A DNA stretch of 64,000 nucleotides from Candidatus Iainarchaeum sp. (GTDB lineage: Archaea > Iainarchaeota > Iainarchaeia > Iainarchaeales > JAFCCW01), in the NCBI GenBank assembly GCA_017609985.1, contig JAFCCW010000001.1, positions 96,001 through 160,000 of the forward strand, written 5' to 3'. Both the position numbers and the translations under genes were made by a program. The notes under the pieces are model-generated. The model did not search any database and was not told the DNA's origin. It saw nothing but the letters and a program-made list of their open reading frames with translations. This document shows positions 10,645 through 51,840 of this stretch, piece after piece. Each line of letters starts with the position of its first letter. Within the stretch, counting starts at the first letter, position 1.

Positions 10645-10661
10645 AAACTTATTCTAGAGAC

Positions 10662-11896: not shown

Positions 11897-11987
11897 AAAA
11901 ACTGATTTTTTTGAATAAAATCTTTATTTCTTTGGGGGTTGCTGATTGTGGAATAAACAAGATTACTGGAAGCGCGGGGGGTTACTC

Positions 11988-17828: not shown

Positions 17829-17838
17829 ACTGATTTTT

Positions 17839-18717: not shown

Positions 18718-18776
18718 CGTATTTTGCAATGACAAACAGCGAAAGCTTTTTATATTCTTGATATCTTAATTGTAGC

Positions 18777-21007: not shown

Positions 21008-21015
21008 GTGAAAAA

Positions 21016-22583: not shown

Positions 22584-22606
22584 ACCCAATCTATTAAGGT
22601 GGTTTA

Positions 22607-23539: not shown

Positions 23540-24091
23540 ATGAAGCTCGTAGTTGCAATAACCGGCGCAAGCGGAGTAAGCTATTCTGTTTCCCTGCTCA
23601 AAGCATTGAAAAAAGCAGGAGTGGAGACACACTTGATTGTCTCCGAGTGGGCTGAAAAGCTGTTTGAAGAAGAAACAGATATTTCAGTTGCGGAAGTGAA
23701 AGCTCTTGCTTCGAAAACATATGGCTATAGGGAAATGGATGCAGCGATTTCCTCATCCAGCTTTTTAGTGGACGGAATGATTGTGATTCCAGCAAGCGTG
23801 AAAACTGTTTCAGACATTGCAAATGCAAGCACTGGCAATCTGATTTCACGCTCAGCAGACAACATGCTGAAAACAGGAAAAAAGCTCGTGGTTTGCGTGA
23901 GAGAAACTCCGCTGAGCGCTCCGTGCCTCAAGAATATGCACAATCTTGCGCTCTATGGGGCGATTGTAATGCCTTTGTCTCCCGGCTTCTATCACAAGCC
24001 AAAAACTATTAAGGATTTAGAAGCTTTTATTACTGGGAAAGTGCTGGATGCATTTGAAATAAAGAATGAAAACTTCAAGAGGTGGGGTTAA
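23540..24091 (+). CDS. ubiX: Flavin prenyltransferase UbiX
   Basis: AITGASG, LISRSAD, RETPL, PGFYHKP. Confidence 0.93.
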   Translation: MKLVVAITGASGVSYSVSLLKALKKAGVETHLIVSEWAEKLFEEETDISVAEVKALASKTYGYREMDAAISSSSFLVDGMIVIPASVKTVSDIANASTGNLISRSADNMLKTGKKLVVCVRETPLSAPCLKNMHNLALYGAIVMPLSPGFYHKPKTIKDLEAFITGKVLDAFEIKNENFKRWG

Positions 24092-25392: not shown

Positions 25393-26561
25393 AACTGTCA
25401 AAAGAAGAGCAGGAAATGATTGAAGGAAAGCAGGGAAATGCAGTAAAGAAGAGCATGGAAATTTTAACTGCTCTTGGAGAAATTTTCGGAGCAGAAGAAC
25501 TTGTGGATGTAAGCAGTGTCCAGATTGCCGGCGTCAGCTACCACAATCTTGGAGAAGCTGGATTGGAGTTTCTTGAAGAAATGGCAAAGGACGGCAAGAC
25601 CAAAGTTCTTACAACACTAAACCCTGCAGGAATGGACTTGGAGAACTGGAAGGCTCTTGGAATTTCTCCAGAGTTTGCAAAACAGCAAGAACTTGTAATA
25701 GAAGCATTTGCAAAGATGGGGGTAATCACTACCTGCACTTGCACCCCATATTTCATTGGAAACACGCCACATTATGGAGAACATATTGCTTGGGCTGAGT
25801 CAAGCGCGGTATGCTATGCAAACTCTGTTCTTGGATTGAAAACAAACAGGGAAGGAGGGCCAAGCGCTCTTGCTTCCGCTCTCACAGGAAAGACTCCAAA
25901 GTTCGGCTTGCATCTTGAAGAAAACAGACAGGCAAAGGTTTTAGTTGAATTAAATGCAGAGCTGAAGAGCGTGCCGGACTTTGGCGCACTGGGCTGGGCA
26001 GTTGGAAACAAAATCGGAAACAAGATTCCCCTGATTACTGGTGTGAAAAAAGCAAGCATTGAAGAACTCAAGAGCCTGTGCGCTAGCATTGCAACCTATG
26101 GCGGAACAGCAATGTTTCACATGGAGGGAATTACTCCAAGCAAGACAACTGTTCCGGAAGAAAAGCTTGAGATTGAAGAAGCAGACCTTGAAGAGGCAAG
26201 AAAAACACTCAACGACGAGATTGAAATTGATTTAATTGCAATCGGCTGCCCGCACTGTTCTCTTGGAGAAATCCAGAAAATTGCCTCTCTTCTTGAAGGA
26301 AAAAAAGTCAAAAAAGAAATGTGGATTTGTTTAGCAAGGCCAATCAAAAAGATTGCAGACCAGATGGGCTATTCAAAGACAATAGAGGGCTCGGGAGCAA
26401 AGTTTGCCTGCGACACCTGCATGGCTGTTGCTCCTTTGAAGGGAAGATTCAAGGGGCTGGCGACTGATTCAGCAAAAGCCTGTTTTTACGGCAGGGGAAA
26501 GAATTCTTTCAAAACCAAATTTATGCCATTGGAAGAGCTTGTAAAGGAGGCGACAGAATGA
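25389..26561 (+). CDS. Aconitase X catalytic subunit (phosphomevalonate dehydratase large subunit)
   Basis: TTLNPAG, TCTCTPY, WAESSA, TNREGG, GCPH, DTC, TDSAK. Confidence 0.93.
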   Translation: MKLSKEEQEMIEGKQGNAVKKSMEILTALGEIFGAEELVDVSSVQIAGVSYHNLGEAGLEFLEEMAKDGKTKVLTTLNPAGMDLENWKALGISPEFAKQQELVIEAFAKMGVITTCTCTPYFIGNTPHYGEHIAWAESSAVCYANSVLGLKTNREGGPSALASALTGKTPKFGLHLEENRQAKVLVELNAELKSVPDFGALGWAVGNKIGNKIPLITGVKKASIEELKSLCASIATYGGTAMFHMEGITPSKTTVPEEKLEIEEADLEEARKTLNDEIEIDLIAIGCPHCSLGEIQKIASLLEGKKVKKEMWICLARPIKKIADQMGYSKTIEGSGAKFACDTCMAVAPLKGRFKGLATDSAKACFYGRGKNSFKTKFMPLEELVKEATE

Positions 26562-26947
26562 TTCTCAAAGGTCAGAAAGTCAGCGCTGGAAAAGCAGAGG
26601 GAGAAGCACTTGTCTCCACAGAAGGAATTTCTTTCTACGGCGGAGTAGAGCCGGAGATAGGAAAAATTGTTGAACAGGGGCACCCTCTTGAAGGAAAATC
26701 TGTTTCAGGAAAAATCCTTGTCTTTCCAGAGGGCAAGGGAAGCACTGTCGGCTCTTATACTTTGTACCAGATGAAAAAGTTCGGCACTGCGCCTGCAGCA
26801 ATAGTCAACAAGCAGGCTGAAACAATTGTTGCAGTTGGAGCAATAATTTCAGAGATTCCAGCAGTCCACAAGATAGACATTGAAAGGATAGAGAATGGAA
26901 CAATGCTCAGAGTTGACGGAGACAAGGGAGAAGTTGAAATAAAATAG
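26558..26947 (+). CDS. Aconitase X swiveling subunit DUF126 (phosphomevalonate dehydratase small subunit)
   Basis: ISFYGGV, GKILVFP.GKGSTVGSY, VAVGAII. Confidence 0.93.
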   Translation: MILKGQKVSAGKAEGEALVSTEGISFYGGVEPEIGKIVEQGHPLEGKSVSGKILVFPEGKGSTVGSYTLYQMKKFGTAPAAIVNKQAETIVAVGAIISEIPAVHKIDIERIENGTMLRVDGDKGEVEIK

Positions 26948-26963
26948 ACAGGATAGTGATTGA

Positions 26964-27755
26964 ATGCTCTATATTTTAAAAATTGGCGGAAGCGTTTGTA
27001 CTGAAAAAGACGAGAACAATCTGCAGGCTAAAGAAGAAACCATCCAAAGAATCGCCCGCGAAATAAAACAGGCAATGGAAAATAAGAGATTTCAGTTAAT
27101 CCTTGTTCACGGAGCAGGTCCTTTTGGACACAAGCTTGTGACGGATTTTGAGATTGACAACGGACTGAAGAACGAAGAGGATTTCGCTAAATTCAAGAAA
27201 GTTCAGGAGTCAATGAAGCAGCTTAATGGCATTGTATTGAAAGAGTTTGAAAAAGAAGGAGTTGAACTGCATCCGCTTGTTCCACATGAAGTGATTAGGC
27301 AGGAGAACAAAAAGATAACAAGTTTTGATACACAAATTCTTGGACAATTTCTTTCCAATGGCAAGATTCCAACCCTCTATGGTGACATGGTTCCAGACTC
27401 AAAATTAAAGGGAAGCGTTGTTTCTGGAGACTCAATAATTGCGTGGCTTTCACGTGAACTAAAAGCAGACACTGTATTCCTTGGCACAGATGTCGACGGA
27501 ATCTATTCAGCTGACCCGAAGAAGGACAGCAATGCAAAGAGGTTTGACAGAATTAATGAAAGCAACTGGCTAGCGGTTGAGAAAGCACTGGATGAAGCAA
27601 GCACTGTTGATGTCACAGGCGGAATGAAGGGAAAAATCGAAAAAATGCGAGAAAAATTCAAAGGCGGAAAAGTAATTGTCTTTGACGCAAACAAAGAAGA
27701 AAGCGTTTTCAAAGCATTAACTGGGCAAAAAATAGGAACCTTGATTGAGTTTTAA
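26964..27755 (+). CDS. ipk: Isopentenyl phosphate kinase
   Basis: LKIGGS, HGAGPFGH, VSGD, TDVDG, DVTGGMKGK. Confidence 0.94.
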   Translation: MLYILKIGGSVCTEKDENNLQAKEETIQRIAREIKQAMENKRFQLILVHGAGPFGHKLVTDFEIDNGLKNEEDFAKFKKVQESMKQLNGIVLKEFEKEGVELHPLVPHEVIRQENKKITSFDTQILGQFLSNGKIPTLYGDMVPDSKLKGSVVSGDSIIAWLSRELKADTVFLGTDVDGIYSADPKKDSNAKRFDRINESNWLAVEKALDEASTVDVTGGMKGKIEKMREKFKGGKVIVFDANKEESVFKALTGQKIGTLIEF

Positions 27756-27756
27756 C

Positions 27757-28281
27757 ATGTCTGAAGAAATATTCGAAGTAGTTGATGACAACAACAATGT
27801 TGTCGGTCTTGAAAAAAGGTCAATAGTTCACAAAACTGGCTTGCCGCATCGCGGAGTATATGTTCTTCTTTTTAATAGCAGAAAAGAACTGCTTTTGCAA
27901 AAACGAGCTTCCTCTAAAAAGATTGCTCCAAGCACGTGGGATGTTTCCAGTGCAGAACACCTGAAACCAGGAGAAAGCTTTGAAGAAGCAGCAAAACGTG
28001 GGCTAGAAGAGGAAGTAAAAATCTTCAATTCCGCTCCCAACCATGTTCTTGACTTTCGCTACACTCACGAATATAATGTTGGTTTGAAAGACGATGAATT
28101 CAATTCAGTTTTTGAACTAGTTTATGATGGGGCTTTTGCTCCAGACAAGGAAGAAGTTTCGGAAGCAAAATTTTTTTCGCTTGAACAGGTCAAAAAAATG
28201 CTTGAAGAAAATCCAGGACAGTTTGCTCCCTGGGTTGAAAAGGTTTTAAGACTCTATTTCGAGAAAAAGAAACTAGTTTAG
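27757..28281 (+). CDS. idi: IDI type 1-like Nudix protein (IPP isomerase or prenyl-PP hydrolase)
   Basis: H..GLPHRG, LLQKRA..K..P..WD, GES..AA.R.L.EE, F.PW; last gene of the MVA operon. Confidence 0.7.
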   Translation: MSEEIFEVVDDNNNVVGLEKRSIVHKTGLPHRGVYVLLFNSRKELLLQKRASSKKIAPSTWDVSSAEHLKPGESFEEAAKRGLEEEVKIFNSAPNHVLDFRYTHEYNVGLKDDEFNSVFELVYDGAFAPDKEEVSEAKFFSLEQVKKMLEENPGQFAPWVEKVLRLYFEKKKLV

Positions 28282-38727: not shown

Positions 38728-38946
38728 ATGTGCCTTGCAGTTCCGGGAAAAGTAATTTCTGTTTCAGAAAAAGAAGCAGTTGTAGACTATGGGCGAGAGC
38801 AAAGAAAAGTCAAGATTGCTGCTTCTAATTTTTCAAAAGGAGATTATGTCCTAGTCCAACAGGGCTTTGTTGTAGCAAAAGTTGAAGAAAGCGAAGCACT
38901 GGAAATGATTCAGGCATGGGAAGAAACAGGTTGCGAAATTCCATAA
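38728..38946 (+). CDS. hypC: HypC/HybG/HupF hydrogenase chaperone (conserved His replaced by Gln)
   Basis: MCLAVPGKV..GDYVLVQQGF. Confidence 0.9.
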   Translation: MCLAVPGKVISVSEKEAVVDYGREQRKVKIAASNFSKGDYVLVQQGFVVAKVEESEALEMIQAWEETGCEIP

Positions 38947-38987
38947 CAAGCCAAGTCTTTTCATAACAAATTATTCAATTTAGTTAT

Positions 38988-39305
38988 TCAACTAATTTCT
39001 TTTTCCAGCTTTTTTATCTCTGCTTCGATTCTTCTTTCTTCATCTGGAGAAAAAGCAGAACCTAATTTTTCTTCAAGTTCTTGAATTCTTTGAATAACTT
39101 TCTCACCACTAGTTTTTTTTCTTAATTCTGCAAGTCTTTCACCAAGCTCTTCTCTTCGTTCAGCTGCCATTCTTGAAGCAATTTCAAATCGCGTGCTTGG
39201 TCTGTCTGGCGCGATAGGCGGAGCTGGTCTTGGAAACTCAAGTTTTTCAGGTTTGGCAGGTTTTCTTTCCAACATTCTTCTGAACACGTCTCTAATTCTT
39301 CTCAT
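38988..39305 (-). CDS. Hypothetical basic/coiled-coil orphan protein
   Basis: GAGG SD; Arg/Pro-rich N-terminus. Confidence 0.6.
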   Translation of the reverse strand: MRRIRDVFRRMLERKPAKPEKLEFPRPAPPIAPDRPSTRFEIASRMAAERREELGERLAELRKKTSGEKVIQRIQELEEKLGSAFSPDEERRIEAEIKKLEKEIS

Positions 39306-39315
39306 TTAATCGCCT

Positions 39316-40023
39316 CTATTTATTTACTGCTTCAAGATTTTTAAGAGTATATTTTTTCATTTCAGTGAACTCGTCTTTTGAAAGAATTTGCACTGCCTGT
39401 TTCCAGTGAACGGAAACAAGATCTCGCTCTCCTGCATCTAGTTTGTAAGGATTTTCAACTGTCTTAATCTTTTCTCTCATATTTAAGTCTCTTCCGTTCT
39501 TGAACAACTCAATTCCCTTAACTTTCAATCCCTTTATTGTAACATCCTTTACTTCTCCCCACTGCACTAGGCACTCTGAAAGATTTTTCACGATTGAAGA
39601 GAGTTCCCTATTCAAGAAATTTATGTGCAGTACATGAAACGAGTGGTGTGGAGTCATTCCCTCTTTGACTGCTGCTGCTTTTTCTTCTGCAATTTTTTTT
39701 GGAAGAAATCCTTTTCCAAGAAAATCCTTTAAAACAAGCCTTTGAAGGTCTCTTTTCTCCACCTGCTCAAGCAAACTGTTTCCAATCCAGTAAGCCTCTA
39801 AAACCTCTGAATCAAATGCACTTAATCCATTCTTGTTAGCAATCATGTTCAAGTAAGGCATTAGTGCGTGAAATTGCTCAAGAGCAGTTTTCACTTTTTC
39901 TTTGTCTGCATCTTCTGGACTATCAATGCATTCTTTAAGCAACGCAGAACAGTCTTGTGGTCCACAGTAGCCAAGCTTGTTTGGAGGCAAAGAATATCTG
40001 CAAACTAGTTCAAGAGAGTTCAT
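39316..40023 (-). CDS. DUF6390-like protein with a HypC-like C-terminal domain
   Basis: YSLPPN.LGYCGP, EAYWIGN, PHHSFHV, C.V.WG.V, VSVHW; family name recalled, not searched. Confidence 0.75.
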   Translation of the reverse strand: MNSLELVCRYSLPPNKLGYCGPQDCSALLKECIDSPEDADKEKVKTALEQFHALMPYLNMIANKNGLSAFDSEVLEAYWIGNSLLEQVEKRDLQRLVLKDFLGKGFLPKKIAEEKAAAVKEGMTPHHSFHVLHINFLNRELSSIVKNLSECLVQWGEVKDVTIKGLKVKGIELFKNGRDLNMREKIKTVENPYKLDAGERDLVSVHWKQAVQILSKDEFTEMKKYTLKNLEAVNK

Positions 40024-40947
40024 CTAAAAAGAGTGCTTGGAAGTGCTTAAATTCTTTGTTCTAATTCGTTCAAGAACACAACCTGCTCCAGCAATCACTG
40101 CAATTCCAGCAATCAATAATCCAAATCCAATTCCCTGCTCAACTGAAACAGGTTTTCCAACAAAAACAAAATTAAGCAAAGCTGTTATTGGAAGTCCAAG
40201 AAGCAAAATGCTAGAAGCAACTGAAGCAGGCAGTCTCTTAAGCCCAGCATAATAACTTGCAACATACAAGAACAAAAGAAGCGAACCCGCAAAAACCCAG
40301 GCAATGTTTTCAAAGCCAAGGCTTGCAATTCCTGCAATCTCTCCTGTCATTGAAAGCCAGGCAAGAATAAATCCTGCTCCAAAAAACATTCTTCCAAATG
40401 CAACAATTCTGCTGTTCAACTCTTTTAGCAGGCTCTTACTTAACACTGTTTCAGAAGCCCACAAAAGAGTAGCAACTAATATCATTGAATCGGCAAAGGC
40501 AAAAGAGGAAATATTTATCCCAAAAAGAAGCACAATTCCGGCAAGAAGCAATCCTGCTCCAACCGCTACTTGCTTGTTAATTTTTTCCCTGAGAAAGAAA
40601 ACAGCAAAGAGTGAAACCCAAACAAAAAGAGTTTTGTGAATAAAAGCAGCATTGACTGCACTTGTAATTTTCAAAGCATTAAAGAATAGCAGAAAAGGAA
40701 TGCTCCCTCCAATTAAGCCAACTCCAACAAGCTTTGCCCACTGCTTTTTTGAAAGCGCTTTAAGGGCGGAAACTTCCCTGAAAAGAACAATTGCTGAAAT
40801 CAGGAAAACTGCTACTGCGCTGTTCTTCAGCAAAGCAAACAAGCTTGCATTAACTCCTGCAATCGCGAAGCTGTTCAAGAAAATAGAGAAACCGCTGACA
40901 AGAGCAGTAAACAATACAAGAAGTAATCCTGTTCTGTTTAATTTCAT
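40024..40947 (-). CDS. EamA/DMT family transporter
   Basis: About ten TM segments in two EamA repeats; GGSIPFLLFF, FIHKTLF..LREK. Confidence 0.88.
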   Translation of the reverse strand: MKLNRTGLLLVLFTALVSGFSIFLNSFAIAGVNASLFALLKNSAVAVFLISAIVLFREVSALKALSKKQWAKLVGVGLIGGSIPFLLFFNALKITSAVNAAFIHKTLFVWVSLFAVFFLREKINKQVAVGAGLLLAGIVLLFGINISSFAFADSMILVATLLWASETVLSKSLLKELNSRIVAFGRMFFGAGFILAWLSMTGEIAGIASLGFENIAWVFAGSLLLFLYVASYYAGLKRLPASVASSILLLGLPITALLNFVFVGKPVSVEQGIGFGLLIAGIAVIAGAGCVLERIRTKNLSTSKHSF

Positions 40948-40999
40948 AGAAAACTTTTCTCCACAAAACCATTTAAAGCTTTTGCAGGAAAATTTCATA

Positions 41000-41326
41000 A
41001 TGAAAGCAGGAATTGAAGATATTTTTGAAAAACTCAAAAAGCTCAAAGAACAGAACGCGCACTTCTCTGTTCTCTCAGCTTATCAAGAAGAAGACGGATT
41101 TGTGCTAAACTATTCTCTGCTCAACGAAAAAAACAAGCCAATTGAAGTAGAGCTTAAAATAACAGAAAAAGAAATAGTTCCAAGCGTTCACGAACTCTTT
41201 CCTGGAGCAGCACTATACGAAACAGAAGCACATGAAATGCTTGGAGTAAAATTTGACAAGCTCCAGCGCGCAAAACTGTTTTTGCCTGATTCAGCTCCAA
41301 AGCACCTGTGTCCTTTGAAGAAGTGA
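41000..41326 (+). CDS. Group 4 hydrogenase subunit, NuoC/EchD/MbhK-like
   Basis: VPSV..LFPGA.LYE.E.HEMLGVKF, LFLPD. Confidence 0.85.
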   Translation: MKAGIEDIFEKLKKLKEQNAHFSVLSAYQEEDGFVLNYSLLNEKNKPIEVELKITEKEIVPSVHELFPGAALYETEAHEMLGVKFDKLQRAKLFLPDSAPKHLCPLKK

Positions 41327-42246: not shown

Positions 42247-42947
42247 TTAGATGAATGAAGCTATCAAATAGTACAATCCAGCGAGAATGAATATTATTGC
42301 AGCTATTTTCCTGAATCATTTTTCAAAGGTTTGGATTTTGCCGATTACTGTTCCGAGCTTTGTCGCACTGTACACCAAGATAAAAGAGAAGATTAGTACT
42401 GGGAGCCCTGTTGCAAATCCGAATACTGCGGGGAGTACAATCCAGTCTCCTGCTTGCAGTGCTATGGGTATGAACATTCCGAAGAACAGGACTGCACTGA
42501 AGGGGCAGAAAGCCAATGCAAAGATGGCTCCTAAAAGGAAGCTTCCAATAAATCCTTTGTTCGCAAGGTCCTCTTTCAGTTTGTTTAGCCTGTCACTCCC
42601 TTTAAAGAAATTGAATTTGATGACGTCAAGCATTATTATTCCAACTATTAGATTATTATTCCAACTATTAAAAGCAGTGGCCCGAGAGCTTTTTCGCTGT
42701 ATTTTTGCAGGAACAGGGCAATGCTTTGGGTGTTTGTTCCAAACCAGATTATTAGGGCTGCAAGCAGAATGTATGTCGCCATTCTGCCTAAAGTGTATAA
42801 GGTTCCGACAAGAAGCGTTTGCTGTTTCCTATTCGTTTTGAAGTGTAAGCAATGGCTGTTATGTTTGTTGTTAGGGGGCACTGGGCTTATTGCTGTCATC
42901 AAGCCTATGAAGAATGTCGCGATTATGGGAATGTTGCTTGTTCCCAT
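42247..42947 (-). pseudogene. ArsG-like (DsbD/CcdA-type) membrane protein pseudogene
   Basis: GLMTAISP then frameshift; 20-bp tandem duplication at 42632-42670; LAFCPFSAVLFFG; in-frame TGA at 42316-42318. Confidence 0.75.
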
Positions 42948-42974
42948 GGCTTCATGAATGCCATTAAATCCATT

Positions 42975-43555
42975 TTAACTCAAGTCTCCTGCTAGTTTCT
43001 TTTCGATAACTCTCTTCAAATAATTTAGGTAATCCTGCTTGTTTCCTATTTTGTACCATACGCTAGTGTTTTGTTCTTTTTTGAATTTTCCGTCTGAAGT
43101 GTATGTTCCTATCCAGAGTGATGAGCCTGTTGCCTCGTGTTTTTTGACAAGGTTCTGGTTTTCAGGCAATTCTGCATTAATGTGGCCAAAGATTATTTTG
43201 CCTGATGCTAATTGTCTGCAAAGAAGGTGTTAAGCGTTTCCTCTGCGTAGGCTCCAACAGTAATGCATGAATAGCATTGGTTTGTTCCATGAAAATGGTA
43301 GACTTCTATCTTTTCAATGTTCTCAGATTCTTTTAGTGTTTCTGTTTGTTCGATTGGTGACAAATTGCATGTATCTGAGTCGGTACAATCTTCCGCTGCA
43401 TTAGGGCTTGTGTTTGCATTGCCTACGCAACCTGAAAAAGCAACTGCCAAAATCAGGGCAATTGCAATCGCCCATTTTCCTAATGCATTTTTCTTTTGCC
43501 ATAAGCTGATTGTGTTTTTGCCAGCGTCTTTTTCTTTTGTAATTCTCTTGTGCAT
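42975..43555 (-). pseudogene. ArsF-like thioredoxin-fold lipoprotein pseudogene
   Basis: Lipobox FSGC, VYHFHGTNQCYSC; frameshift near 43210 splits it into two ORFs. Confidence 0.7.
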
Positions 43556-43578
43556 TTTCTGCCCTCCAATAACCTGTT

Positions 43579-43809
43579 TTATTGCAACATTTTTTTTATT
43601 TCTTCAACGTCTGCCACTTTGCCAGAGCTCTTTATCTCGCCGTCAATGGCTAAGGCGGGTGTTGCCATTACTCCTGCTTCAATTATTTTGTTTATGTCCG
43701 TGACTTTTTCTATTTCCGCTTTTTTTCCAGTTTCTTCCAAAGCTTTTTTTACGTTTGCTTCAAGTTGCTTGCATTTCGGGCAACCGGTTCCCAATATTTC
43801 TATTTTCAT
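43579..43809 (-). CDS. Small redox-active disulfide protein (MTH895/TM0996 family)
   Basis: ILGTGCPKC, GVMATPALAIDG. Confidence 0.92.
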   Translation of the reverse strand: MKIEILGTGCPKCKQLEANVKKALEETGKKAEIEKVTDINKIIEAGVMATPALAIDGEIKSSGKVADVEEIKKMLQ

Positions 43810-43820
43810 TTAATTCCTCC

Positions 43821-44906
43821 TTAAATCATTCCAAAAATTAATCCTGCAACAGAAGAATAAATCACAACTATTGTAATGTAAGCAATTGTTTTTTTGTTTC
43901 CGAGAACGCTCCTTATAACGAGAATTGCAGGCAGGCTCAATGATGGGCCTGCAAGCAATAATGCAAGTGCCGGGCCCTGGTTCATTCCCTTTGCAATAAG
44001 CGCCTGCATTATTGGCACTTCGGTCAGTGTTGAAAAGTACATGAATGCCCCGAATACTGATGCCAACAGATTTGCTTGGATTGTGTTTGAGCCGACCCAT
44101 TGGATTATAATCTGTTCCGGAATGAGGGGCATTATGAACCCAACAACAAAAACGCCGATGAACAAATAAGGAATTAACAGTTTGCTTATGCTCCAGGTTT
44201 CTGAAAGCCATTCGTTTCTTGTTTTGGTTTTGAATTTCAACAAAACAATTGCTATAGTAATCAATGCTAGGAAACCCATTATTGTCCATTTTATTGTTGA
44301 ATCAATTTGCAGGCCGTTCACTATGAGGATTCCAACCATTGTAGCAAAGAACAAGCCCATAAAAGTTTTTGAGATTTTTTGTTCGGTTTCTTCTTCTATT
44401 GCAATTTCTTGTTTTGCGTTTTTTTCCCTGAAAAGAAAGGCCATTGTCAGGCCAACAAGCCCTGCTAAAGCAATTGCTGAAATCGCTCTTGCCAATCCAA
44501 TTTTGAATCCCAGAACGCTTGCAGTAAGAAAGATTGCTGCAATGTTTATTGCTGGGCCGGAGTAAAGGAATGCTATTGCTGGCCCAAGCCCTGCACCTCT
44601 TTTATAAATTCCTGCGAATAATGGGAGAATCGTGCAGCTGCAAACAGCAAGAACAGCTCCAGAAACAGATGCAATCGGGTAGGAAACATATGGTTTTGCT
44701 TTTCCACCCAGATATTTCAGAACAGCCTGTTTTTTTACAAAAATTGTGATAGCTCCTGCGATAAAGAATGCTGGAACAAGGCAGGTTAGCACGTGCTGTG
44801 TTGCGTACTCGTGCAGTAATGCAAAACCACTTAGCAGTGCATTATTCAGCCACTGGCTTTCAATCGGCATGAAGTAGAATGCAAAGAAAACTGATACAAT
44901 AATCAA
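43821..44906 (-). CDS. arsP: ArsP/DUF318 permease
   Basis: CLVPAFFIAGA, AVCSCTILPLFAG, GPAINI, MYFSTLTEVP, GPSLSLP. Confidence 0.9.
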   Translation of the reverse strand: MIIVSVFFAFYFMPIESQWLNNALLSGFALLHEYATQHVLTCLVPAFFIAGAITIFVKKQAVLKYLGGKAKPYVSYPIASVSGAVLAVCSCTILPLFAGIYKRGAGLGPAIAFLYSGPAINIAAIFLTASVLGFKIGLARAISAIALAGLVGLTMAFLFREKNAKQEIAIEEETEQKISKTFMGLFFATMVGILIVNGLQIDSTIKWTIMGFLALITIAIVLLKFKTKTRNEWLSETWSISKLLIPYLFIGVFVVGFIMPLIPEQIIIQWVGSNTIQANLLASVFGAFMYFSTLTEVPIMQALIAKGMNQGPALALLLAGPSLSLPAILVIRSVLGNKKTIAYITIVVIYSSVAGLIFGMI

Positions 44907-44932
44907 AAAAATATTTTTTTCTTTTATTTATA

Positions 44933-45241
44933 TCACCTTTTTTTGTACTGCTTGCCGCACGTTTTTTTAATGCAGGATTTTGTGCAATCCAAGGAGTTAA
45001 GGACACCGCAAACTACAGGGTTTGAAATACTGTAAATAACTTTTTTCCCATTTCTTTCGTGCTTTATTATTCCTGCTTTTTCAAGTTTTGCCAGGTGAAT
45101 TGAAACAGTTGACTGAGTTCTTTTAACATGTGGGAAAATTTGGCATACACATCTTTCTCCATCTAAAAGCAGTCTAACTATTTCAAGTCTTGTTTTATCA
45201 GAAAGAGCCTTTAAAATTTTTAAGGTATTATCTTCACCCAT
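44933..45241 (-). CDS. arsR: ArsR/SmtB transcriptional repressor
   Basis: LKALSDKTRLEI, ERCVC, QSTVSIHLAKL. Confidence 0.92.
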   Translation of the reverse strand: MGEDNTLKILKALSDKTRLEIVRLLLDGERCVCQIFPHVKRTQSTVSIHLAKLEKAGIIKHERNGKKVIYSISNPVVCGVLNSLDCTKSCIKKTCGKQYKKR

Positions 45242-45453: not shown

Positions 45454-45876
45454 TCAGGCTTTTTGAATAATTGAAACAGCTTCTTCAACAGCTTTCCTTA
45501 CCTCTTCACTCATTTCGTCGCCGAACTCAATGCTTTTTGCCTGAACAAGCAACAGCCTTACTTCCGGTATTTCTATTTCTTCTTTTATGTATCTGACAAA
45601 CTGTTCAATTGAAGTAGAGTGTGTTGACAGCACTATCTTGTCTGGCAATTTCTCTGTTTCTGTTATTTCTCCTGCTTTGCCTCCAAATTCTGCTGCATCA
45701 ACAATCCAAAGTTTTTCAATTTTTTTCCCTCTCAGTTTGTGCAAAACTCCTTCCGGTGAGTTTCCGCCCCATAAAAGCATTTTTTCACTGCCCTGCCGTT
45801 CAAGCTCTTTCAGGACAAAGAATGCAAAGCCATCGTCTCCCTTTAGCTCGTTTCCGATGCCAACAACTGCTTCCAT
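45454..45876 (-). CDS. hycI: Hydrogenase maturation protease HycI-like
   Basis: VGIGNELKGDDG, PE, IVDAA, STH. Confidence 0.92.
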   Translation of the reverse strand: MEAVVGIGNELKGDDGFAFFVLKELERQGSEKMLLWGGNSPEGVLHKLRGKKIEKLWIVDAAEFGGKAGEITETEKLPDKIVLSTHSTSIEQFVRYIKEEIEIPEVRLLLVQAKSIEFGDEMSEEVRKAVEEAVSIIQKA

Positions 45877-45927: not shown

Positions 45928-47673
45928 ATGGATAATTTGATTTTGTTGTTTGTTAGTGGTCAGGCTGTAATCATTGCTCCGCTCATAGCCTCTGCATTGC
46001 TTTTTTTGCTTGCGCTTGCAACTCCTAAAAAGCAACAGGGAAAGCTTGCCTGGGTTGGAGCAACAGCTGTCTTTCTGACCGGCATTGCAACATTTTTTGC
46101 AGAGCCTGTTTCAAACAGTTTCTTTCTTTTTGACCCGCTTTCAAAAGTATTCACATTTATTCTTGCAGTGATTGCCCCGCTTGTAATCGTGTATTCAGCA
46201 AAGTATATTGAAGTAAAGGAACAAAAGAGATATTTTTCAATAATCTATTTTTTCATTTTTTCAATGTTTTTGCTGGTAATGGCAAACAATCTAATCCTTT
46301 TCTTTATTGCCTGGGAATTAGTCAGCATTGCTTCTTTCATGCTAATCTCTTTTGAATACAGGGAAAGAAAAGCTGTTTTTGCAGCAAACAAGTGCTTTGC
46401 GCTAACCCAGCTAGGCGGACTTCTTGTATTAGCTGGTGTAGCCCTGCTTTCTTCAGGAAACATGTTTTCAATTTCAAGCCTTGTTGCAATTTCCGGTTCA
46501 ATCCCTGTTTCAATTGCTTTGCCAGCAGCTCTCTTGATTGCTGTTGGAGCACTATCCAAAAGCTCTATTTATCCATTTAACTGGCTTGCTGACGCAATGA
46601 AGGCTCCAACTCCAGTTTCTGCACTGCTTCACTCTGCTACAATGGTGAATGCTGGAATGTTTATTCTCTTCAAATTCTCTCCACTTTTCTCAAGATTCTC
46701 CGAGGTTTCAATGCTTATAATCGCGCTTGCATTTCTCAGCATGATTTATGCAGGTGTTTCCGCTTTAGTTGAGCGAGATTTCAAGCGCGTTCTTGCTTTC
46801 TCCACAATCCTAAACCTTGGCTATGTTGCAGCCACGTTAATGCTTTTCACTCCAGAGGCAACAGCAGCTGCCCTCTTCCACTTGGTTAACCATGCGTTCT
46901 TCAAAGCAGGTTTGTTCCTTGCGGCAGGAATAATTATCCTGAAATCAGGAGACCACCTGCTTGACGACCTTGGCGGAGCAGCAATGATGATGGGAAAATC
47001 AAAATATGCTCTTCTTTTCCTGATTTTTGCAGCTTCCTCTCTTCCAATCACAAACACTTTCTTGAGCAAATGGGCTGTTTACTCTATTTGGTTGCAAAAA
47101 ATGCCTTTAGCTCTTCCAATAATTGCTGCTGGAACCATGATCCCGCTTGTTTACTATTCAAAAATTATTAATGTCTTGTTTTATCCAAAAAACTTCAAGA
47201 AAAAGAAGCTCAGCAAGTCATTAACTGTTCCGCTTGCAATAATTACTGGATTCTGCCTGCTGTTTGGAGTAAGCCTTGTGGGTTACAACCTGCTTGTGGC
47301 TCCAGTAGTTCCTGTTCAACTTGCATTCCCCTTCGACGTAACCCTGGTTTTGTTGTTTGCTTCTCTCTTGCTTGGATTTGCTCTTAGCGCTGTGAAAAAG
47401 ACAAGAATTGATTCAACTGGTCCTTTTACCGGGGGAGAAAAGCTTCAGCCAGCTGCGCAGACAATGTTCTTTTTTGGCAAAGACAAGCAATTTATTAAAA
47501 AGATTTCAGGCTTTATTGATATTGACCGGGTTTACTGGATTTTAATGAAATTCTTCTATTATGCTTTTAGAGCAGTAAACTGGCTTGAAGGATTATTTGA
47601 GGAAAAAACAGGAGCAGCGATTGCGGGCACTATTGCAGTAGTATTTGTAATATTCTTTACAGGGGTTTTCTGA
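45928..47673 (+). CDS. Antiporter-like membrane subunit (NuoL/EchA/HyfB)
   Basis: FIAWELV, WLADAMKAPTPVSALLHSATMV, KRVLAFST, NHAFFKAGLF. Confidence 0.92.
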   Translation: MDNLILLFVSGQAVIIAPLIASALLFLLALATPKKQQGKLAWVGATAVFLTGIATFFAEPVSNSFFLFDPLSKVFTFILAVIAPLVIVYSAKYIEVKEQKRYFSIIYFFIFSMFLLVMANNLILFFIAWELVSIASFMLISFEYRERKAVFAANKCFALTQLGGLLVLAGVALLSSGNMFSISSLVAISGSIPVSIALPAALLIAVGALSKSSIYPFNWLADAMKAPTPVSALLHSATMVNAGMFILFKFSPLFSRFSEVSMLIIALAFLSMIYAGVSALVERDFKRVLAFSTILNLGYVAATLMLFTPEATAAALFHLVNHAFFKAGLFLAAGIIILKSGDHLLDDLGGAAMMMGKSKYALLFLIFAASSLPITNTFLSKWAVYSIWLQKMPLALPIIAAGTMIPLVYYSKIINVLFYPKNFKKKKLSKSLTVPLAIITGFCLLFGVSLVGYNLLVAPVVPVQLAFPFDVTLVLLFASLLLGFALSAVKKTRIDSTGPFTGGEKLQPAAQTMFFFGKDKQFIKKISGFIDIDRVYWILMKFFYYAFRAVNWLEGLFEEKTGAAIAGTIAVVFVIFFTGVF

Positions 47674-48812
47674 TGACGGACGAGAAAAGAGACAAAAAGC
47701 ATGAAACAATTCTGCCAATTGGGCCATTCCACCCGCTCTTGAAGGAACCAGAATACTTCAAGGTTCACGTTGACGGAGAAAAAGTAACAGACTTTGATTT
47801 CAGGCTTGGATTCAATCACAGGGGAATAGAGAAGATAGTGGAGAGCAAAACCTATTCAATGGCTACAACACTCTTAGGAAAAGTCTGCGGAATCTGCAAT
47901 CAAGCTCATTCACTTGCTTTCTCAATTGGCGTAGAAAAAATAAACAAGATTACTGTTCCAAAGAGAGGAAAATACATAAGAACAATTACTTTCGAATTAG
48001 AAAGAATTCAATCACACCTGCTCTGGCTTGGAGTCATGGCAGAAGCAATAGGTTTTGAAACAGTTTTCATGCATTCCTGGAGAGAACGAGAGAGAACAAA
48101 CTATCTTTTTGAATTAATGACTGGAAACAGAATCGCAAAAGAAATGTCTGTTGTCGGAGGCTCTAAATGGGATCTTGACGAAAAAACAGGAAAAAAAGTT
48201 TTATCAGAGTTACCCAATTTAGTCAAGTTTGCTAACAACATGGAGCGAGTTTTTACAAAAGACAAGCTTGTTCACAAAAGACTCAAAGAAGTTGGAGTGC
48301 TTTCAAAAGAAGAAGCAAAGCATTTCGATGTTGTTGGCCCAGTTGCAAGAGCGTCTTCCCTTGACTTTGACATAAGAAAGAATTCCCCTTACGAAGTTTA
48401 CAAAGATTTTGAATTCAATGTAATTGTGGGGGACGGAGCAGACTGTCTTGAAAGAACTCTTGTAAGAATCAGGGAAATCAAGGAAAGCGCTGAAATAATA
48501 AGGCAATGCATTGAATTACTGCCCGGTGGAGAGCACAGGCTCAAGTTCTTCAAAAGCGCGGAAGGAAAAACAACTTCTCGGGTTGAAGCTCCAAGAGGAG
48601 AGAACGCGCACTTTATGGTCACAGGCGAAATGAATCCAGTGCGACTGAAAATTCGAGCCCCAACCTATGCAAATATTCCTCCGCTCAAAACAATGCTTCT
48701 TAACCAAAAAATTGCTGATGTTCCGCCAATCATCATCAGCATTGACCCGTGCTTTTCTTGCACTGACAGAATAGCTGTTTACAAAAAAGGAGAACTGGTG
48801 AAGAGAGTATGA
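47673..48812 (+). CDS. Group 4 [NiFe]-hydrogenase large subunit (EchE/MbhL-like)
   Basis: GPFHP..KEP, GFNHRGIEK, L1 VCGIC, EAPRGE, L2 DPCFSC followed by a TDR.. C-terminal extension. Confidence 0.93.
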   Translation: MTDEKRDKKHETILPIGPFHPLLKEPEYFKVHVDGEKVTDFDFRLGFNHRGIEKIVESKTYSMATTLLGKVCGICNQAHSLAFSIGVEKINKITVPKRGKYIRTITFELERIQSHLLWLGVMAEAIGFETVFMHSWRERERTNYLFELMTGNRIAKEMSVVGGSKWDLDEKTGKKVLSELPNLVKFANNMERVFTKDKLVHKRLKEVGVLSKEEAKHFDVVGPVARASSLDFDIRKNSPYEVYKDFEFNVIVGDGADCLERTLVRIREIKESAEIIRQCIELLPGGEHRLKFFKSAEGKTTSRVEAPRGENAHFMVTGEMNPVRLKIRAPTYANIPPLKTMLLNQKIADVPPIIISIDPCFSCTDRIAVYKKGELVKRV

Positions 48813-49840
48813 TGGAAGCAGTCACAATTGAATCTGCAAGAATTCCTCTGGCTCTTGCACTTGCATTTGCAAGCATTTTTTCACTGCAATTCAGCATATG
48901 GAAAAAAAGAGCAACAAGCTTTAGAACAATTTTTTACGCGGTTTTGTTTGCAGGAGTTATTGGAAGTGTTCTACTCAGGGGAATTTACTCAGTTGCTTCA
49001 ATGGAGTTAGCAGTTTATTCCGCAGGATTTCTTTTATACTTTGCAAACGGAAACAAAAAAACAGCTTTGCTTTACTTTGCTTCACAGGCTCTTGCAACAG
49101 CCATGATTATTCTCGGAGTTGTTCTGCCAGGATTCACTCCGCTTGTATTCATTGGATTTTTGCTCAAACTCGGGGCATTTCCTCTGCATCTCTGGTTTCG
49201 CTCTGCTCTGGAAAACTCAACTGTTGGAACAGCAGCAATAATTTCTGCTTCACTCTCAACTTCAATTCTTTTCACAATGATTTCAAACAGCATTGTTTCT
49301 GAATCATTTATTGCAATTGGACTAATCGGCGCATTTGCAGGAGCAATACTTGCTCTTGGTTCAAAAAGAGTTAGGGAAAAAACAGCTTATATTGCAATGG
49401 CTGGAACAGGCCTTGCTCTTATTCCAATTGGGTTTGGAGGCGACTTGTTTGGAATAGCAATAGCTTTTATTTTTTCACTGCTTTTTGCAAAACAAGCTTT
49501 GTTTATTCTAGCAGGACTTGTTGAAGAAAAAGCTTCTTCAAATTTTGGAATAAACTCTGCAGCACTTTTAGCAGCTTCCTTTTCAATTGCCGGCCTTCCA
49601 CTTACCGCTGGATTTATTTCCTTGCACGAACTATTGTTTCACGCAGCAAAACTTGAATTATTTAACTTTTTTGGAATACTTCTAGCAGCACTATTGTTCG
49701 TATTCTATGCCTGTCTTTCTAGCTACAAACAGCTTGCAGAAAGTGAAGGAGAAAGCAATGCTCGGGGAATTGAATCAATGCTTGCTCTCTCCACTATCTC
49801 AATGATTGCGCTTGGGCTGGTTTTTTGGGTGATTATGTAA
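48809..49840 (+). CDS. Second antiporter-like subunit (MrpD/NuoN-like, shortened)
   Basis: LKLGAFPLHLW, SIAGLPLTAGFIS. Confidence 0.8.
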   Translation: MMEAVTIESARIPLALALAFASIFSLQFSIWKKRATSFRTIFYAVLFAGVIGSVLLRGIYSVASMELAVYSAGFLLYFANGNKKTALLYFASQALATAMIILGVVLPGFTPLVFIGFLLKLGAFPLHLWFRSALENSTVGTAAIISASLSTSILFTMISNSIVSESFIAIGLIGAFAGAILALGSKRVREKTAYIAMAGTGLALIPIGFGGDLFGIAIAFIFSLLFAKQALFILAGLVEEKASSNFGINSAALLAASFSIAGLPLTAGFISLHELLFHAAKLELFNFFGILLAALLFVFYACLSSYKQLAESEGESNARGIESMLALSTISMIALGLVFWVIM

Positions 49841-49850
49841 TGTTGGAGAC

Positions 49851-50267
49851 TTGGGTGATATTGTGACATTTGTAAAAAAGAGTCCCTGGATTTTTCATCT
49901 TAACACTGGAAGCTGCAACGGCTGTGACATAGAAGCAGTTGCATGCGTTACTCCTGGCTTTGATATTGAGAGATTGGGAGCAAAGCTTGTTGGCTCTCCA
50001 AGGCATGCAGATATAATACTTGTAACCGGTCCAGTGAACAAGCACAGTCTTGAAAGAATCAAGACAGTTGTGGAACAGGCTCCAAAAGGAAAAGTAATCG
50101 TTGGAATAGGGGCCTGCACTATTTCAGGAGGATTGTTCAAAGACAGCTACAATACAGACCCTCCTCTTGGAAAGCACATGCCAGTAACAATGTACATTCC
50201 AGGATGCCCTCCAAAACCAGAGGCAATAATTGCTGGTTTAGCAAAAGCACTGGAGGCACTTAAATGA
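49851..50267 (+). CDS. Hydrogenase small subunit (NuoB/EchC/MbhJ)
   Basis: GSCNGCDIE, SPRHAD, GAC..SGG, IPGCPPKP. Confidence 0.95.
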   Translation: MGDIVTFVKKSPWIFHLNTGSCNGCDIEAVACVTPGFDIERLGAKLVGSPRHADIILVTGPVNKHSLERIKTVVEQAPKGKVIVGIGACTISGGLFKDSYNTDPPLGKHMPVTMYIPGCPPKPEAIIAGLAKALEALK

Positions 50268-51112
50268 ATTACTTAAATCTTGCATTTGTTGGAATCGCAG
50301 CATTCCTCTTTGTCTGGATTGAGAGAAAAATTCTCGCATCATCTCAGTACAGAGTAGGGCCTCCGATTTTACAACCTGTTTATGATTTACTAAAACTTCT
50401 TGAAAAAGAAACTATTAGAAATTTCTTTGCAAGCCCAATGCTTCCATTTGTTCCATTTGTTGGACTGTCTGCATTGCTTGTAGTAGCAGCTGGCCTCCCA
50501 TTTGCAGGAATCCCAGCTTCAATAGACATTGTTACAACAATCTTTCTCCTGCTTCTTGTTTCAGTAGCTTATCCAATCGCAGGATTTCTCTCATTTTCGC
50601 CGTATGGATATATTTCCGCAAGGCGCGCAGCAATTCAGATACTAAGCTACGAACTCCCTCTCACTCTTTCAATTATTTCAGCAGCAATATTTCATCAGAC
50701 ACTTTCATTCAATAATTTGTCAGGTTTTTCATTTTATCTGCTTCCTGCGATGGCAGTTTTTTATGTCTGTGCTCTTGCAGCAATGCACAAAAAACCATTT
50801 GATGTGCCAAACGCAGTTGAAGAGCTTGTTGCAGGAAGTGAAACAGAATTTTCAGGAATTCCACTTGCAGGATTCAAACTAATTGAATGGATTGAAGGAG
50901 TTATTTTGGCAGAACTCTTCTTTTTGCTCTTTATTGGAATTCCAGATGCAATAACACACATTGTTTCAGTCACAGTGATTTTCTCATCTTTTGCAATAGT
51001 TGAGGCAGTTACTCCAAGGCTAAGAATAGACCATGTAACAGACTTTTTCATAAAATACATGGTTCCTCTTTCAATTGCAGGAGTGGTGATAGCATGTTGC
51101 GTGAGGTTCTAA
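50264..51112 (+). CDS. NuoH/EchB/MbhM membrane subunit
   Basis: ERK..A..Q.RVGPP..QP.YD..KL, PFD...EELVAG..TEFSG. Confidence 0.93.
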   Translation: MNYLNLAFVGIAAFLFVWIERKILASSQYRVGPPILQPVYDLLKLLEKETIRNFFASPMLPFVPFVGLSALLVVAAGLPFAGIPASIDIVTTIFLLLLVSVAYPIAGFLSFSPYGYISARRAAIQILSYELPLTLSIISAAIFHQTLSFNNLSGFSFYLLPAMAVFYVCALAAMHKKPFDVPNAVEELVAGSETEFSGIPLAGFKLIEWIEGVILAELFFLLFIGIPDAITHIVSVTVIFSSFAIVEAVTPRLRIDHVTDFFIKYMVPLSIAGVVIACCVRF

Positions 51113-51441
51113 GAAGCATTTTCAAAAAACCAGCTACTTCAAGTTTTCCATTCGAAGACCATGTTCCGGAAAATCACAGAGGAAAAATTAAATGGATTCC
51201 AGAAAAATGCATTTACTGCAGACTGTGTGAGAGAAGCTGTCCAACAGGAGCATGCAAATTTATTCCTCCAAAAAAAGCAGGAGAAAAGGGAACAATCGAA
51301 ATAGACATTGGAAAATGTGTTTTCTGTTATGAATGTGTTCTAGCCTGCCCAAAAGATGCTTTGGAAGGAACACTGGATTACAAGCTTGCATATATTTCAA
51401 AATCAGAAAAAGCAGATGAAAAATTAAGGAAAAAGAATTGA
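51094..51441 (+). CDS. 2x[4Fe-4S] subunit (NuoI/EchF/MbhN)
   Basis: KPAT..FP, RGK, CIYCRLCERSCP, CVFCYECVLACP. Confidence 0.93.
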   Translation: MLREVLRSIFKKPATSSFPFEDHVPENHRGKIKWIPEKCIYCRLCERSCPTGACKFIPPKKAGEKGTIEIDIGKCVFCYECVLACPKDALEGTLDYKLAYISKSEKADEKLRKKN

Positions 51442-51537
51442 ACTAAAAAAAAGAGATTAATCAAAAAAAAAAATTGATAAATCAAAAAAACCAACAAAGA
51501 AAAAAAATTAATGAAAACGAAAACAGGGGGAAAAACA

Positions 51538-51840
51538 ATGCACGAACATCACACTCTTGCAATGATTGAATCAAAGCTTTCTGAAACAAGAGACAAAACA
51601 GCAGTTAAAAAAATCGTAGTGGGCAGAGACGAGGTTCATGATATAGAAACATTCAAGCAGAATGCAAAACAAATGCTTGAAGAAAAATTTCCAGAAGCAA
51701 ACACAGAAATCGAGGTTCGCGATCCAGAAATGATTTGTCCAGCCTGCGGCTACAAAACAAATGAAATGATTGAAATCTGCCCAGAATGCGAAACAAAAAT
51801 GAATCTTGAAACAAACAAGGGGGTAAGATTGGAGTTTTAA
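51538..51840 (+). CDS. hypA: HypA-like Ni metallochaperone
   Basis: N-terminal MHE plus CPAC and CPEC; GGGGG SD. Confidence 0.75.
   Translation: MHEHHTLAMIESKLSETRDKTAVKKIVVGRDEVHDIETFKQNAKQMLEEKFPEANTEIEVRDPEMICPACGYKTNEMIEICPECETKMNLETNKGVRLEF

Follow-up and report, generated by a model that had tools for sequence, protein, structure and literature searches.

A HypC without its conserved histidine, a DUF6390 protein and an EamA permease as a possible [NiFe]-hydrogenase maturation module in Candidatus Iainarchaeum

We analyzed a stretch of 64,000 nucleotides (the window hereafter) from the archaeon Candidatus Iainarchaeum sp. (assembly GCA_017609985.1, contig JAFCCW010000001.1, positions 96,001–160,000), in which a HypC chaperone with glutamine at position 44, a DUF6390 protein and an EamA permease of the drug/metabolite transporter (DMT) superfamily are encoded close together. 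The C-terminal domain of the DUF6390 protein is a true homologue of HypC and not a chance resemblance, because profile matches, an AlphaFold2 model and structure matches all pointed to HypC. We put at a little under one half (roughly 0.45) the probability that the three genes are a dedicated [NiFe]-hydrogenase maturation module, in which the DUF6390 protein would be a scaffold or carrier of the iron branch, working with HypC and standing in for HypCD in this organism. This reading is based on the iron-chaperone domain, a histidine that complements the one lost from HypC, the exclusion of DUF6390 with HypD, and the retained steps of HypA, HypC and the endopeptidase. The genes concerned, and an open reading frame (ORF) among them, are as follows.

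38728–38946, + strand: HypC chaperone, 72 amino acids (PF01455, 69.1 bits; TIGR00074, 60.2 bits; alignment to 2z1c)
38988–39305, − strand: charged ORF of 105 amino acids, probably coiled, between HypC and DUF6390, without a Pfam or NCBIfam family
39316–40023, − strand: DUF6390 protein, 235 amino acids (PF19927, 132.1 bits)
40024–40947, − strand: EamA/DMT-superfamily permease, about 307 amino acids (PF00892, 114 bits, two repeats)

The 105-residue ORF had no homologue across 80 related loci at E ≤ 1e-3 and is probably outside the conserved module. The permease was listed as an ORF of 40024–41046 (− strand), and its likely start is MKLNRTG at 40947. A profile search of the whole source genome (1.16 Mb in 37 contigs, completeness 86.6%) found a single HypC, a single DUF6390 protein and a single [NiFe] large subunit. 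Among the sequencing runs listed as containing the locus there was no RNA data set, and one DNA run matched a tenth of the sampled words. In a relatives search and the family tree, the nearest kin of the window DUF6390 protein were from Iainarchaeia-type DPANN archaea.

The window HypC exceeded the curated cut-offs of both of its families (28.5 bits for PF01455 and 48 bits for TIGR00074; that of PF19927 is 25 bits). Its N-terminus is MCLAVPG, so that Met-Cys with Cys2 is kept. At the position of the conserved histidine (H51 of Escherichia coli HypC, in the motif VLVHxGF) it has Gln44: VLVQQGF was aligned on VIVHTGF of Thermococcus kodakarensis HypC (PDB ID: 2z1c), and the protein departs from the canonical motif here, as the original prediction, made from the sequence alone, had read it. 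In canonical systems, the Cys and His of HypC together with Cys41 of HypD hold the iron. The scan of species genomes found DUF6390 relatives in 422, and gene order was compared at the best-scoring 80 loci, where HypC was inside the flank in 56. Cys2 was kept in all 56 of these linked HypCs and the histidine was missing from 45 (Gln in 34, other residues in 11), while all five HypCs encoded beside HypD in the phylum of the source genome had it. According to the available part of a 2025 review, the histidine missing from the window HypC is the iron-site histidine (PMC12134894).

The match of the DUF6390 protein to PF19927 covered profile positions 7–239 of 244. Residues 1 to about 148 form an all-helical N-terminal domain with Cys20, His126, His127 and His130, and residues from about 149 to 235 form a HypC-like β-barrel and a C-terminal helix with Cys151 and His206. 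Alignment of the C-terminal domain with a profile of 57 HypCs by hhalign gave a probability of 96.4% (E = 1.3e-9, 66 columns); the whole DUF6390 family gave 93.7% (E = 1.9e-7) and the N-terminal domain, as a control, 0.6%. HypC also ranked first, at E = 0.05, when the family profile was compared with all PDB sequences, and the C-terminal half of the window protein had no PF01455 match even at E ≤ 10. The AlphaFold2 model had a predicted local distance difference test score (pLDDT) of 94.5 and a predicted template modeling score (pTM) of 0.91, and began with ten helices, after which came a barrel of five strands and a long helix at the C-terminus. When it was compared with 48,161 PDB chains by VIA-align, HypC 2z1c was the sole match with Z ≥ 5 (Z = 5.5, root mean square deviation 2.1 Å, 71 of 71 residues, model residues 149–233), and the runner-up was E. 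coli HypC 2ot2 (Z = 4.8), after which came generic oligonucleotide/oligosaccharide-binding (OB) folds. Foldseek likewise placed HypC first (probability 0.98, TM-score 0.62–0.73 on HypC length), but at E = 0.09 and with no match at E = 0.001. Cys151 was aligned with Cys2 of HypC and His206 with the HypC histidine position. The predicted parallel between the two C-termini, with a Cys and the missing His in DUF6390, was thus borne out by profile and by structure.

Both residues of the C-terminal domain were invariant in 82 family members (C151 82/82, H206 82/82), and the candidate ligands that had been read from the N-terminal motifs GYCGP (Cys20) and PHHSFHV (His126, His127 and His130) were almost as well conserved (C20 81/82, H126 80/82, H127 82/82, H130 71/82). 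These residues were also kept in fusions of DUF6390 with PadR and with EamA, and may be metal ligands. With a His-keeping DUF6390 protein in 82 of 82 cases and 45 of 56 linked HypCs without His, the supply of the histidine in trans by DUF6390 would generalize beyond the window. Beyond DUF6390 itself, the N-terminal domain had no Pfam match at E ≤ 10, no PDB sequence match and no usable Atlas match; in fold searches with the whole model, the result lists were filled by matches of the C-terminal domain. The two-domain form is dominant: the 150 listed among 650 cluster representatives were nearly all 190–280 amino acids long. At one locus from Woesearchaeota (L019:10750-11385), a divergent DUF6390 protein with the N-terminal domain only (PF19927, 28.5 bits, profile positions 46–129) is encoded directly after a full DUF6390 gene.

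The source genome retains HypA, HypC and an endopeptidase, and nothing in it reached the canonical cut-offs of HypD, HypE, HypF or HypB. No HypD was found by profile search of the genome at its 86.6% completeness, and the best matches were 88 bits for HypE (cut-off 251.6), 34 bits for HypF (cut-off 466) and 29 bits for HypB (cut-off 121). The HypE candidate was ThiL, encoded next to ThiC; the HypF-like matches were a lone acylphosphatase and Kae1/TsaD; and an ROK protein among the HypE/HypF-like matches was also rejected. The best HypB-like match was a 264-residue P-loop protein of the CobW/HypB/UreG type (34 bits) with a C-terminal Fe-S domain, encoded beside an ATP-binding cassette (ABC) ATPase (L006:1144-1938, G000:C34); it is a possible nickel-insertion NTPase.

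The same pattern was found in other carriers of DUF6390. HypD was present in one of 131 distinct carriers, a set made up of the genomes reached through the loci and of samples of the phylum of the source genome, Thermoplasmata and Chloroflexota, with no sample of Actinomycetota, a group in which the Atlas suggests many DUF6390 clusters. The single HypD copy, in the Thermoplasmata genome G011, is frame-broken. Among the locus-reached carriers, HypD was found in one of 50 and in none of 10 more, HypE over the cut-off in none of 50, HypF in one of 51 and HypB in two of 51; HydG, considered as another source of carbon monoxide (CO) and cyanide (CN), was rejected with 0 of 51. In the phylum sample (151 genomes), HypC was found in 54 genomes, DUF6390 in 45 and HypD in five, with no overlap of DUF6390 and HypD. 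There was likewise no overlap in Thermoplasmata (151 genomes; DUF6390 in 10, HypD in 99, that is, in 99 of the 141 DUF6390-free genomes) or in Chloroflexota (201 genomes; DUF6390 in 18, HypD in 90, that is, in 90 of the 183 DUF6390-free genomes); two of the 90 HypD genomes of Chloroflexota are flagged as unpublished, and the zero overlap does not depend on them. The anti-correlation of DUF6390 with hypD that the original prediction called for was therefore found.

An assembly artefact, with hypB, hypD, hypE and hypF in the unassembled 13% of the genome, would be in keeping with 86.6% completeness and 37 contigs. The same absence was seen, however, in all but one of 131 carriers, among them a relative in one contig with 99% completeness (G051), in which neither HypD nor HypF was found, and a whole chromosome of 1.96 Mb (G030), in which no HypD, HypE, HypF, HypB or HydG was found. 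As a positive control, five equally fragmented HypD genomes of the same phylum readily showed hypC-hypD-hypE-hypF clusters, and genera g9 and g15 contain both DUF6390 genomes and HypD genomes, never with both genes in one genome. Because closed carriers lack HypD and fragmented relatives show hyp clusters, genome incompleteness does not explain the missing HypD, HypE and HypF, and we regard such an artefact as next to negligible. Chloroflexota carriers with the same pattern reach 7.7 Mb, a finding that a host-derived cofactor, also suggested in the original prediction, does not explain.

DUF6390 is associated with hydrogenase genes throughout. Clustering of the neighbors at the 80 loci gave the NiFe large subunit at 60, HypC at 57, the small subunit at 42 and the endopeptidase at 28, and no further conserved family apart from pyruvate:ferredoxin oxidoreductase subunits in some Thermoplasmata. 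The arrangement seen most often combines a group-3b hydrogenase with a short endopeptidase, EamA and DUF6390, and places HypC and HypA close by; the hydrogenases at Chloroflexota loci are group 1/2-like. EamA was immediately upstream of DUF6390 on the same strand at 63 of 80 loci. In the window, the EamA stop and the DUF6390 start adjoin without a spacer, which suggests translational coupling, and in 59 of 60 same-strand pairs the DUF6390 ORF started no more than 8 nucleotides past the EamA stop. At two loci (L051 and L057) the two are a single ORF, and a third fusion is P0264. At Chloroflexota loci, EamA is replaced by an ABC transporter downstream of DUF6390. The conserved residues of EamA were Glu121, Glu166, Lys171, Arg186, Trp163 and Trp217; since these are Glu, Lys, Arg and Trp, the substrate may be organic or chelated rather than a bare soft metal.

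These fusions also bear on a second explanation, in which DUF6390 is a sensor or gate that detects a ligand or metal and controls the permease to which it is attached (or transcription, where it is fused to PadR), and carries no cofactor. A cytoplasmic domain at the C-terminus of a transporter often has a regulatory role. The AlphaFold2 model of a natural EamA-DUF6390 fusion (pLDDT 91.5, pTM 0.66) has well-folded parts of uncertain mutual placement, among them a helical membrane domain, and in this model the permease and DUF6390 are predicted to be joined by a disordered linker (residues 298–312), an arrangement that a sensor could have; five PadR-DUF6390 fusions (P0101, P0114, P0118, P0120 and P0263) also fit this role. 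A sensor leaves both the exclusion of HypD and the correlated loss of His from HypC unexplained, and the family is almost always a free-standing two-domain protein. We therefore consider this explanation distinctly unlikely.

In the phylum of the source genome, 49 genomes had HypC and no HypD: DUF6390 exceeded the cut-off in 40 of these, one had a weak match and one had none. In the remaining seven (L095–L101: G115, G118, G055, G123, G145, G166 and G190), which have HypC and neither HypD nor DUF6390, we found a short cousin of DUF6390, 157–181 amino acids in length, with the N-terminus LFLKYAxPCA and a HypC-like C-terminal domain containing Cys and His. The cousin lies between a His-less HypC and EamA in clusters of the order HypA-HypC-X-EamA-SSU-LSU-HycI, where X is the cousin and SSU and LSU are the small and large subunits; the G118 copy of the cousin is a fusion with HypC. 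Its scores against PF01455 were about 26–30 bits, straddling the 28.5 cut-off. An Atlas cluster of 414 members with a length of 180 amino acids, mostly from Aenigmatarchaeota, may be the same family. In this phylum, nearly every HypC thus appears to be accompanied either by HypD or by a HypC-like partner that keeps the His.

From these observations, a broader proposal may be drawn: a second route to the iron unit of [NiFe] enzymes, independent of HypD, HypE and HypF, in which a His-less HypC and DUF6390 or its short cousin would be coupled to a permease supplying iron or a ligand precursor, in DPANN, the candidate phyla radiation (CPR), Thermoplasmata, Chloroflexota and others. We hold this proposal to be less likely than not, though by no means remote.

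Whether the linked enzymes are ordinary [NiFe]-hydrogenases bears on a further explanation. The hydrogenase and maturation genes of the window, identified by Pfam and a motif scan, are as follows.

about 41000–41326, + strand: NuoC/30-kDa-like hydrogenase subunit, divergent from EamA (PF00329, 57 bits, ORF residues 120–224)
45454–45876, − strand: HycI-type maturation endopeptidase (PF01750, 58 bits; TIGR00072, 104.6 bits)
45928–51441, + strand: group-4 membrane-bound [NiFe]-hydrogenase operon (Pfam and motif scan), made up of the next six entries
45928–47673, + strand: antiporter-like hydrogenase subunit (Pfam)
47673–48812, + strand: [NiFe] large subunit (CGICNQAH, DPCFSCTDR, C-terminal tail of 13 amino acids)
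48809–49840, + strand: second antiporter-like subunit (Pfam)
49851–50267, + strand: NuoB-like small subunit (Pfam)
50264–51112, + strand: NuoH-like subunit (Pfam)
51094–51441, + strand: 2x[4Fe-4S] protein (Pfam)
51535–51840, + strand: HypA nickel metallochaperone (PF01155, 27.8 bits, just below the 28.9 cut-off; MHEHH start, CPAC..CPEC)

The NuoC-like ORF was listed from 40652 and likely starts near 41000; HypA was listed from 51511 and likely starts at the MHE motif at 51535. HypA and HycI near HypC, DUF6390 and EamA had been expected from the original prediction and were located here. The large subunit of the window fits group 4, with two CxxC pairs, a C-terminal tail and NuoB-, NuoC-, NuoH-, NuoI- and NuoL-like neighbors. 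The linked large subunits had both CxxC pairs and a tail of 7–31 amino acids at 30 loci as well as in the window, and those of L032 and L036 kept the CxxC pairs and had no tail. Because CxxC pairs and tail are kept, the linked large subunits look like normal [NiFe] enzymes by sequence.

It could nevertheless be that these hydrogenases mature without CN and CO, or with other ligands, so that HypD, HypE and HypF are not needed and DUF6390 delivers plain iron. Carriers without HypD, HypE, HypF or HydG (G011 aside, where HypD is frame-broken) are what this would predict, and iron-type transporters adjoin DUF6390 in some bacteria. The large subunits nevertheless keep the CxxC pairs, a PRG motif and the tail with its endopeptidase, with Ser before DPC in the window enzyme, and in model systems, as a review also has it, tail and endopeptidase act only once nickel and a normal iron unit have been inserted. 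Furthermore, the large subunit at L071 carries RICGICGDNH and DPCLPCGVH, which we take to be typical of high-affinity group 1h enzymes, whose solved structures presumably show the usual cofactor. A different cofactor is, in our judgment, improbable.

The presence of a transporter raised another explanation, namely that the module belongs to the nickel branch: EamA would import nickel or a nickel chelate, DUF6390 would hand nickel to HypA as a Cys/His chaperone, in place of HypB, and the lack of HypD, HypE and HypF would be a separate matter. Hydrogenase operons that contain a transporter usually have one for nickel. HypB was over the cut-off in only two of 51 carriers and is absent here, HypA is kept, and both the conserved Cys residues and PHHSFHV, a motif rich in His, would suit such a chaperone. 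At loci without EamA, an ABC system with a family-5 solute-binding protein (PF00496, which we take to be the family of nickel-binding NikA) follows DUF6390 (L044), an ABC system with TOBE_2 is found at L049, and Nramp is near L054. The C-terminal domain of DUF6390 copies the iron chaperone HypC, however, and no nickel chaperone; EamA is without a conserved Cys/His/Met cluster; and DUF6390 coexists with hypA and hypB on a plasmid of Sulfobacillus. Loss of HypB is offset by added nickel in model organisms and so needs no replacement, whereas loss of HypD, HypE and HypF does. The histidine lost from HypC is that of the iron site, as far as the available part of the review goes (PMC12134894). A role in the nickel branch is therefore unlikely.

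If DUF6390 acts in the iron branch, as we prefer, the following mechanism can be proposed. DUF6390 would be located at the cytoplasmic face of the permease, and its HypC-like domain would pair with either the small HypC or the apo-large subunit. DUF6390 and Cys2 of HypC would give an iron site (Cys151, His206 and perhaps Cys20 and His126/127/130), as the HypC-HypD complex does elsewhere. The large subunit would receive first the iron unit from HypC and then nickel from HypA, and HycI would finally cut the 13-residue tail after Arg366. The cargo of the permease might be iron or a ligand precursor, or an exported by-product. Where HypC, HypD, HypE and HypF are present, DUF6390 might be an additional carrier, much as HoxV/HupK are with HoxL.

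Several findings weigh against this role. On the Mycobacterium intracellulare plasmid NZ_CP012886.2, DUF6390 overlaps the end of hypD by 4 nucleotides in a hypF-hypC-hypE-hypC-hypD operon, and on the Sulfobacillus acidophilus plasmid CP003180.1 its place is after hypF-hypC-hypD-hypE-tatA, and hypA and hypB are close by. Because operons are shared on these two plasmids, DUF6390 can apparently work beside a full Hyp set and would not be intrinsically an alternative to HypD. G011 (L102, G011:C1:337500-344500) has DUF6390 together with an intact hypF. The histidine was kept in 11 of the 56 linked HypCs (nine from Thermoplasmata and two from Actinomycetota). Cys151 of DUF6390 is internal, compared with the N-terminal Cys of HypC, and the N-terminal domain had no likeness to HypD by hhalign (0.2%). 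The contrast between DUF6390 and HypD had Fisher p values of 1.3e-5 and 1.7e-5 in the two larger samples (Thermoplasmata and Chloroflexota), both inflated by kinship, and was not significant in the whole sample of the phylum of the source genome (p = 0.17, inflated by kinship as well). The search of the DUF6390 neighborhoods gave no enzyme that makes CN or CO, EamA has no conserved Cys or His and no Cys/His/Met cluster, and the PadR fusions described above fit a sensor.

Further details of these cases are as follows. On both plasmids, the HypCs adjacent to hypD have the His, no EamA is beside DUF6390, and the Sulfobacillus hydrogenase operon has a separate HupF/HypC gene with Glu at the His position. 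In the family tree, the two plasmid DUF6390 proteins group with those of HypD-less Actinomycetota in a bacterial clade, and the window protein belongs to an archaeal/CPR/Thermoplasmata clade that carries EamA. The hypD of G011 occupies three or more reading frames and has three in-frame TGA codons, and its hypE is split over two frames, owing either to gene decay or to an error of long-read assembly. The plasmid hyp operons of Mycobacterium and Sulfobacillus (L103:10070-10780 and L104:9203-9454) also encode HypC-like proteins with an internal CVTCSD before the barrel, one of them with an N-terminal extension of 170 residues; DUF6390 is therefore not the only protein whose HypC domain has an internal Cys. 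Taken together, a non-canonical assembly route with DUF6390 as scaffold, the central proposal of the original prediction, came through the search for hypB, hypD, hypE and hypF, the anti-correlation with HypD and the structural comparison with HypC; the two hypFCDE operons on plasmids, the 11 HypCs with His and the lack of a CN or CO source leave it only partly upheld.

The module was compared with known systems. The 72-residue protein is a member of the HypC/HybG/HupF family (PF01455, TIGR00074; 2z1c, 2ot2, 3vyr), and the C-terminal domain of DUF6390 shares with it the OB barrel, the C-terminal helix and the Cys and His positions. The differences are that the window HypC has Gln for His, and that in DUF6390 the Cys is internal (151) with a helical domain of 148 residues in front. 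The proposed partnership with HypC resembles that of the HypC-HypD scaffold, to which HypE and HypF donate cyanide, and DUF6390 and HypD were mutually exclusive in the three sampled phyla; unlike HypD, however, DUF6390 has no HypE/HypF counterpart, lacks sequence likeness to HypD, and coexists with HypD on two plasmids. EamA shares the ten-helix, two-repeat architecture of EamA/DMT permeases such as YddG and LicB (7b0k; a weak LicB match, E = 0.004), but matched no characterized subfamily (TIGR00950, 48 bits versus the 230 cut-off). HoxV/HupK with HoxL/HupF are described, in the part of the review available, as extra scaffold-carrier pairs of oxygen-tolerant hydrogenases (PMC12134894). As described there, they too place an extra protein with a HypC-type chaperone between the site of ligand assembly and the large subunit, which fits the Mycobacterium and Sulfobacillus operons, but they resemble large subunits and depend on HypCD, whereas DUF6390 does not resemble a large subunit and most of its carriers have no HypCD.

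The same review, in its available part, states that six Hyp proteins are necessary for [NiFe]-hydrogenases (PMC12134894). Archaeal [FeFe]-hydrogenases are active without HydE, HydF and HydG, from which the authors infer an alternative pathway (Cell 2024, PMC11216029). That case is similar in that active hydrogenases occur in genomes without the known maturases, and different in that the enzyme class and the maturases are others and, in the portion of the paper available, no candidate replacement genes are named (PMC11216029). Jaffe (2020) mentions, in the accessible text, a hypC-like family near CPR hydrogenases and nothing more, and its supplements might list hyp content (PMC7304191). Our literature searches found no paper that mentions DUF6390 or ties EamA to hypC and a hydrogenase, and by search terms none on CPR/Patescibacteria with hyp genes. 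New here are the genome-scale exclusion with HypD, HypE and HypF, the positive controls, the statistics of the His position, the short cousin, the natural fusions, the confident fold and the counter-examples on plasmids.

Other features of the window were also observed. A regulator of the ArsR type, a permease of the ArsP type, a small thioredoxin and a membrane protein of the DsbD_2 type are encoded between the module and the hydrogenase operon (42316–45241); the DsbD_2-type protein is in two ORFs (42316–42633 and 42648–42947) and is either broken or a two-gene form. The region 16406–28281 has a raised G+C content (0.42–0.46, compared with about 0.37) and encodes HMG-CoA reductase, a thiolase with a condensing enzyme, a GHMP kinase, and UbiX-like, UbiD-like, AcnX, amino-acid-kinase-fold and NUDIX proteins, a set that resembles the archaeal modified mevalonate pathway. 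A full-length RelA/SpoT homologue with HD, RelA_SpoT, TGS and ACT domains is encoded at 1836–3701 in this apparently archaeal genome; such proteins are unusual in archaea. At 57877–60948 there is a type II/IV secretion ATPase of 1023 amino acids with an intein (LAGLIDADG and helix-turn-helix domains), followed downstream by two T2SSF-type membrane proteins. The lowest G+C content of the window (0.313) was found at 10000–12920, beside a tyrosine integrase (11988–12920), and this region may be an integrated element.

More than 100 genomes from at least three phyla have normal-looking hydrogenases together with HypA, HypC and endopeptidase but no HypD, HypE or HypF, and have one conserved, unstudied gene set instead. 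The three small genes are a concrete handle on a question parallel to that of the archaeal [FeFe] maturases, as presented in the available part of that study (PMC11216029). If the role proposed here is true, it would mean a new chemistry by which metal-bound CN and CO are made or acquired, and a much smaller gene kit for hydrogenase production in other hosts. The inference of H2 metabolism from metagenomes, in which the absence of hyp genes is usually put down to incompleteness, would also change.

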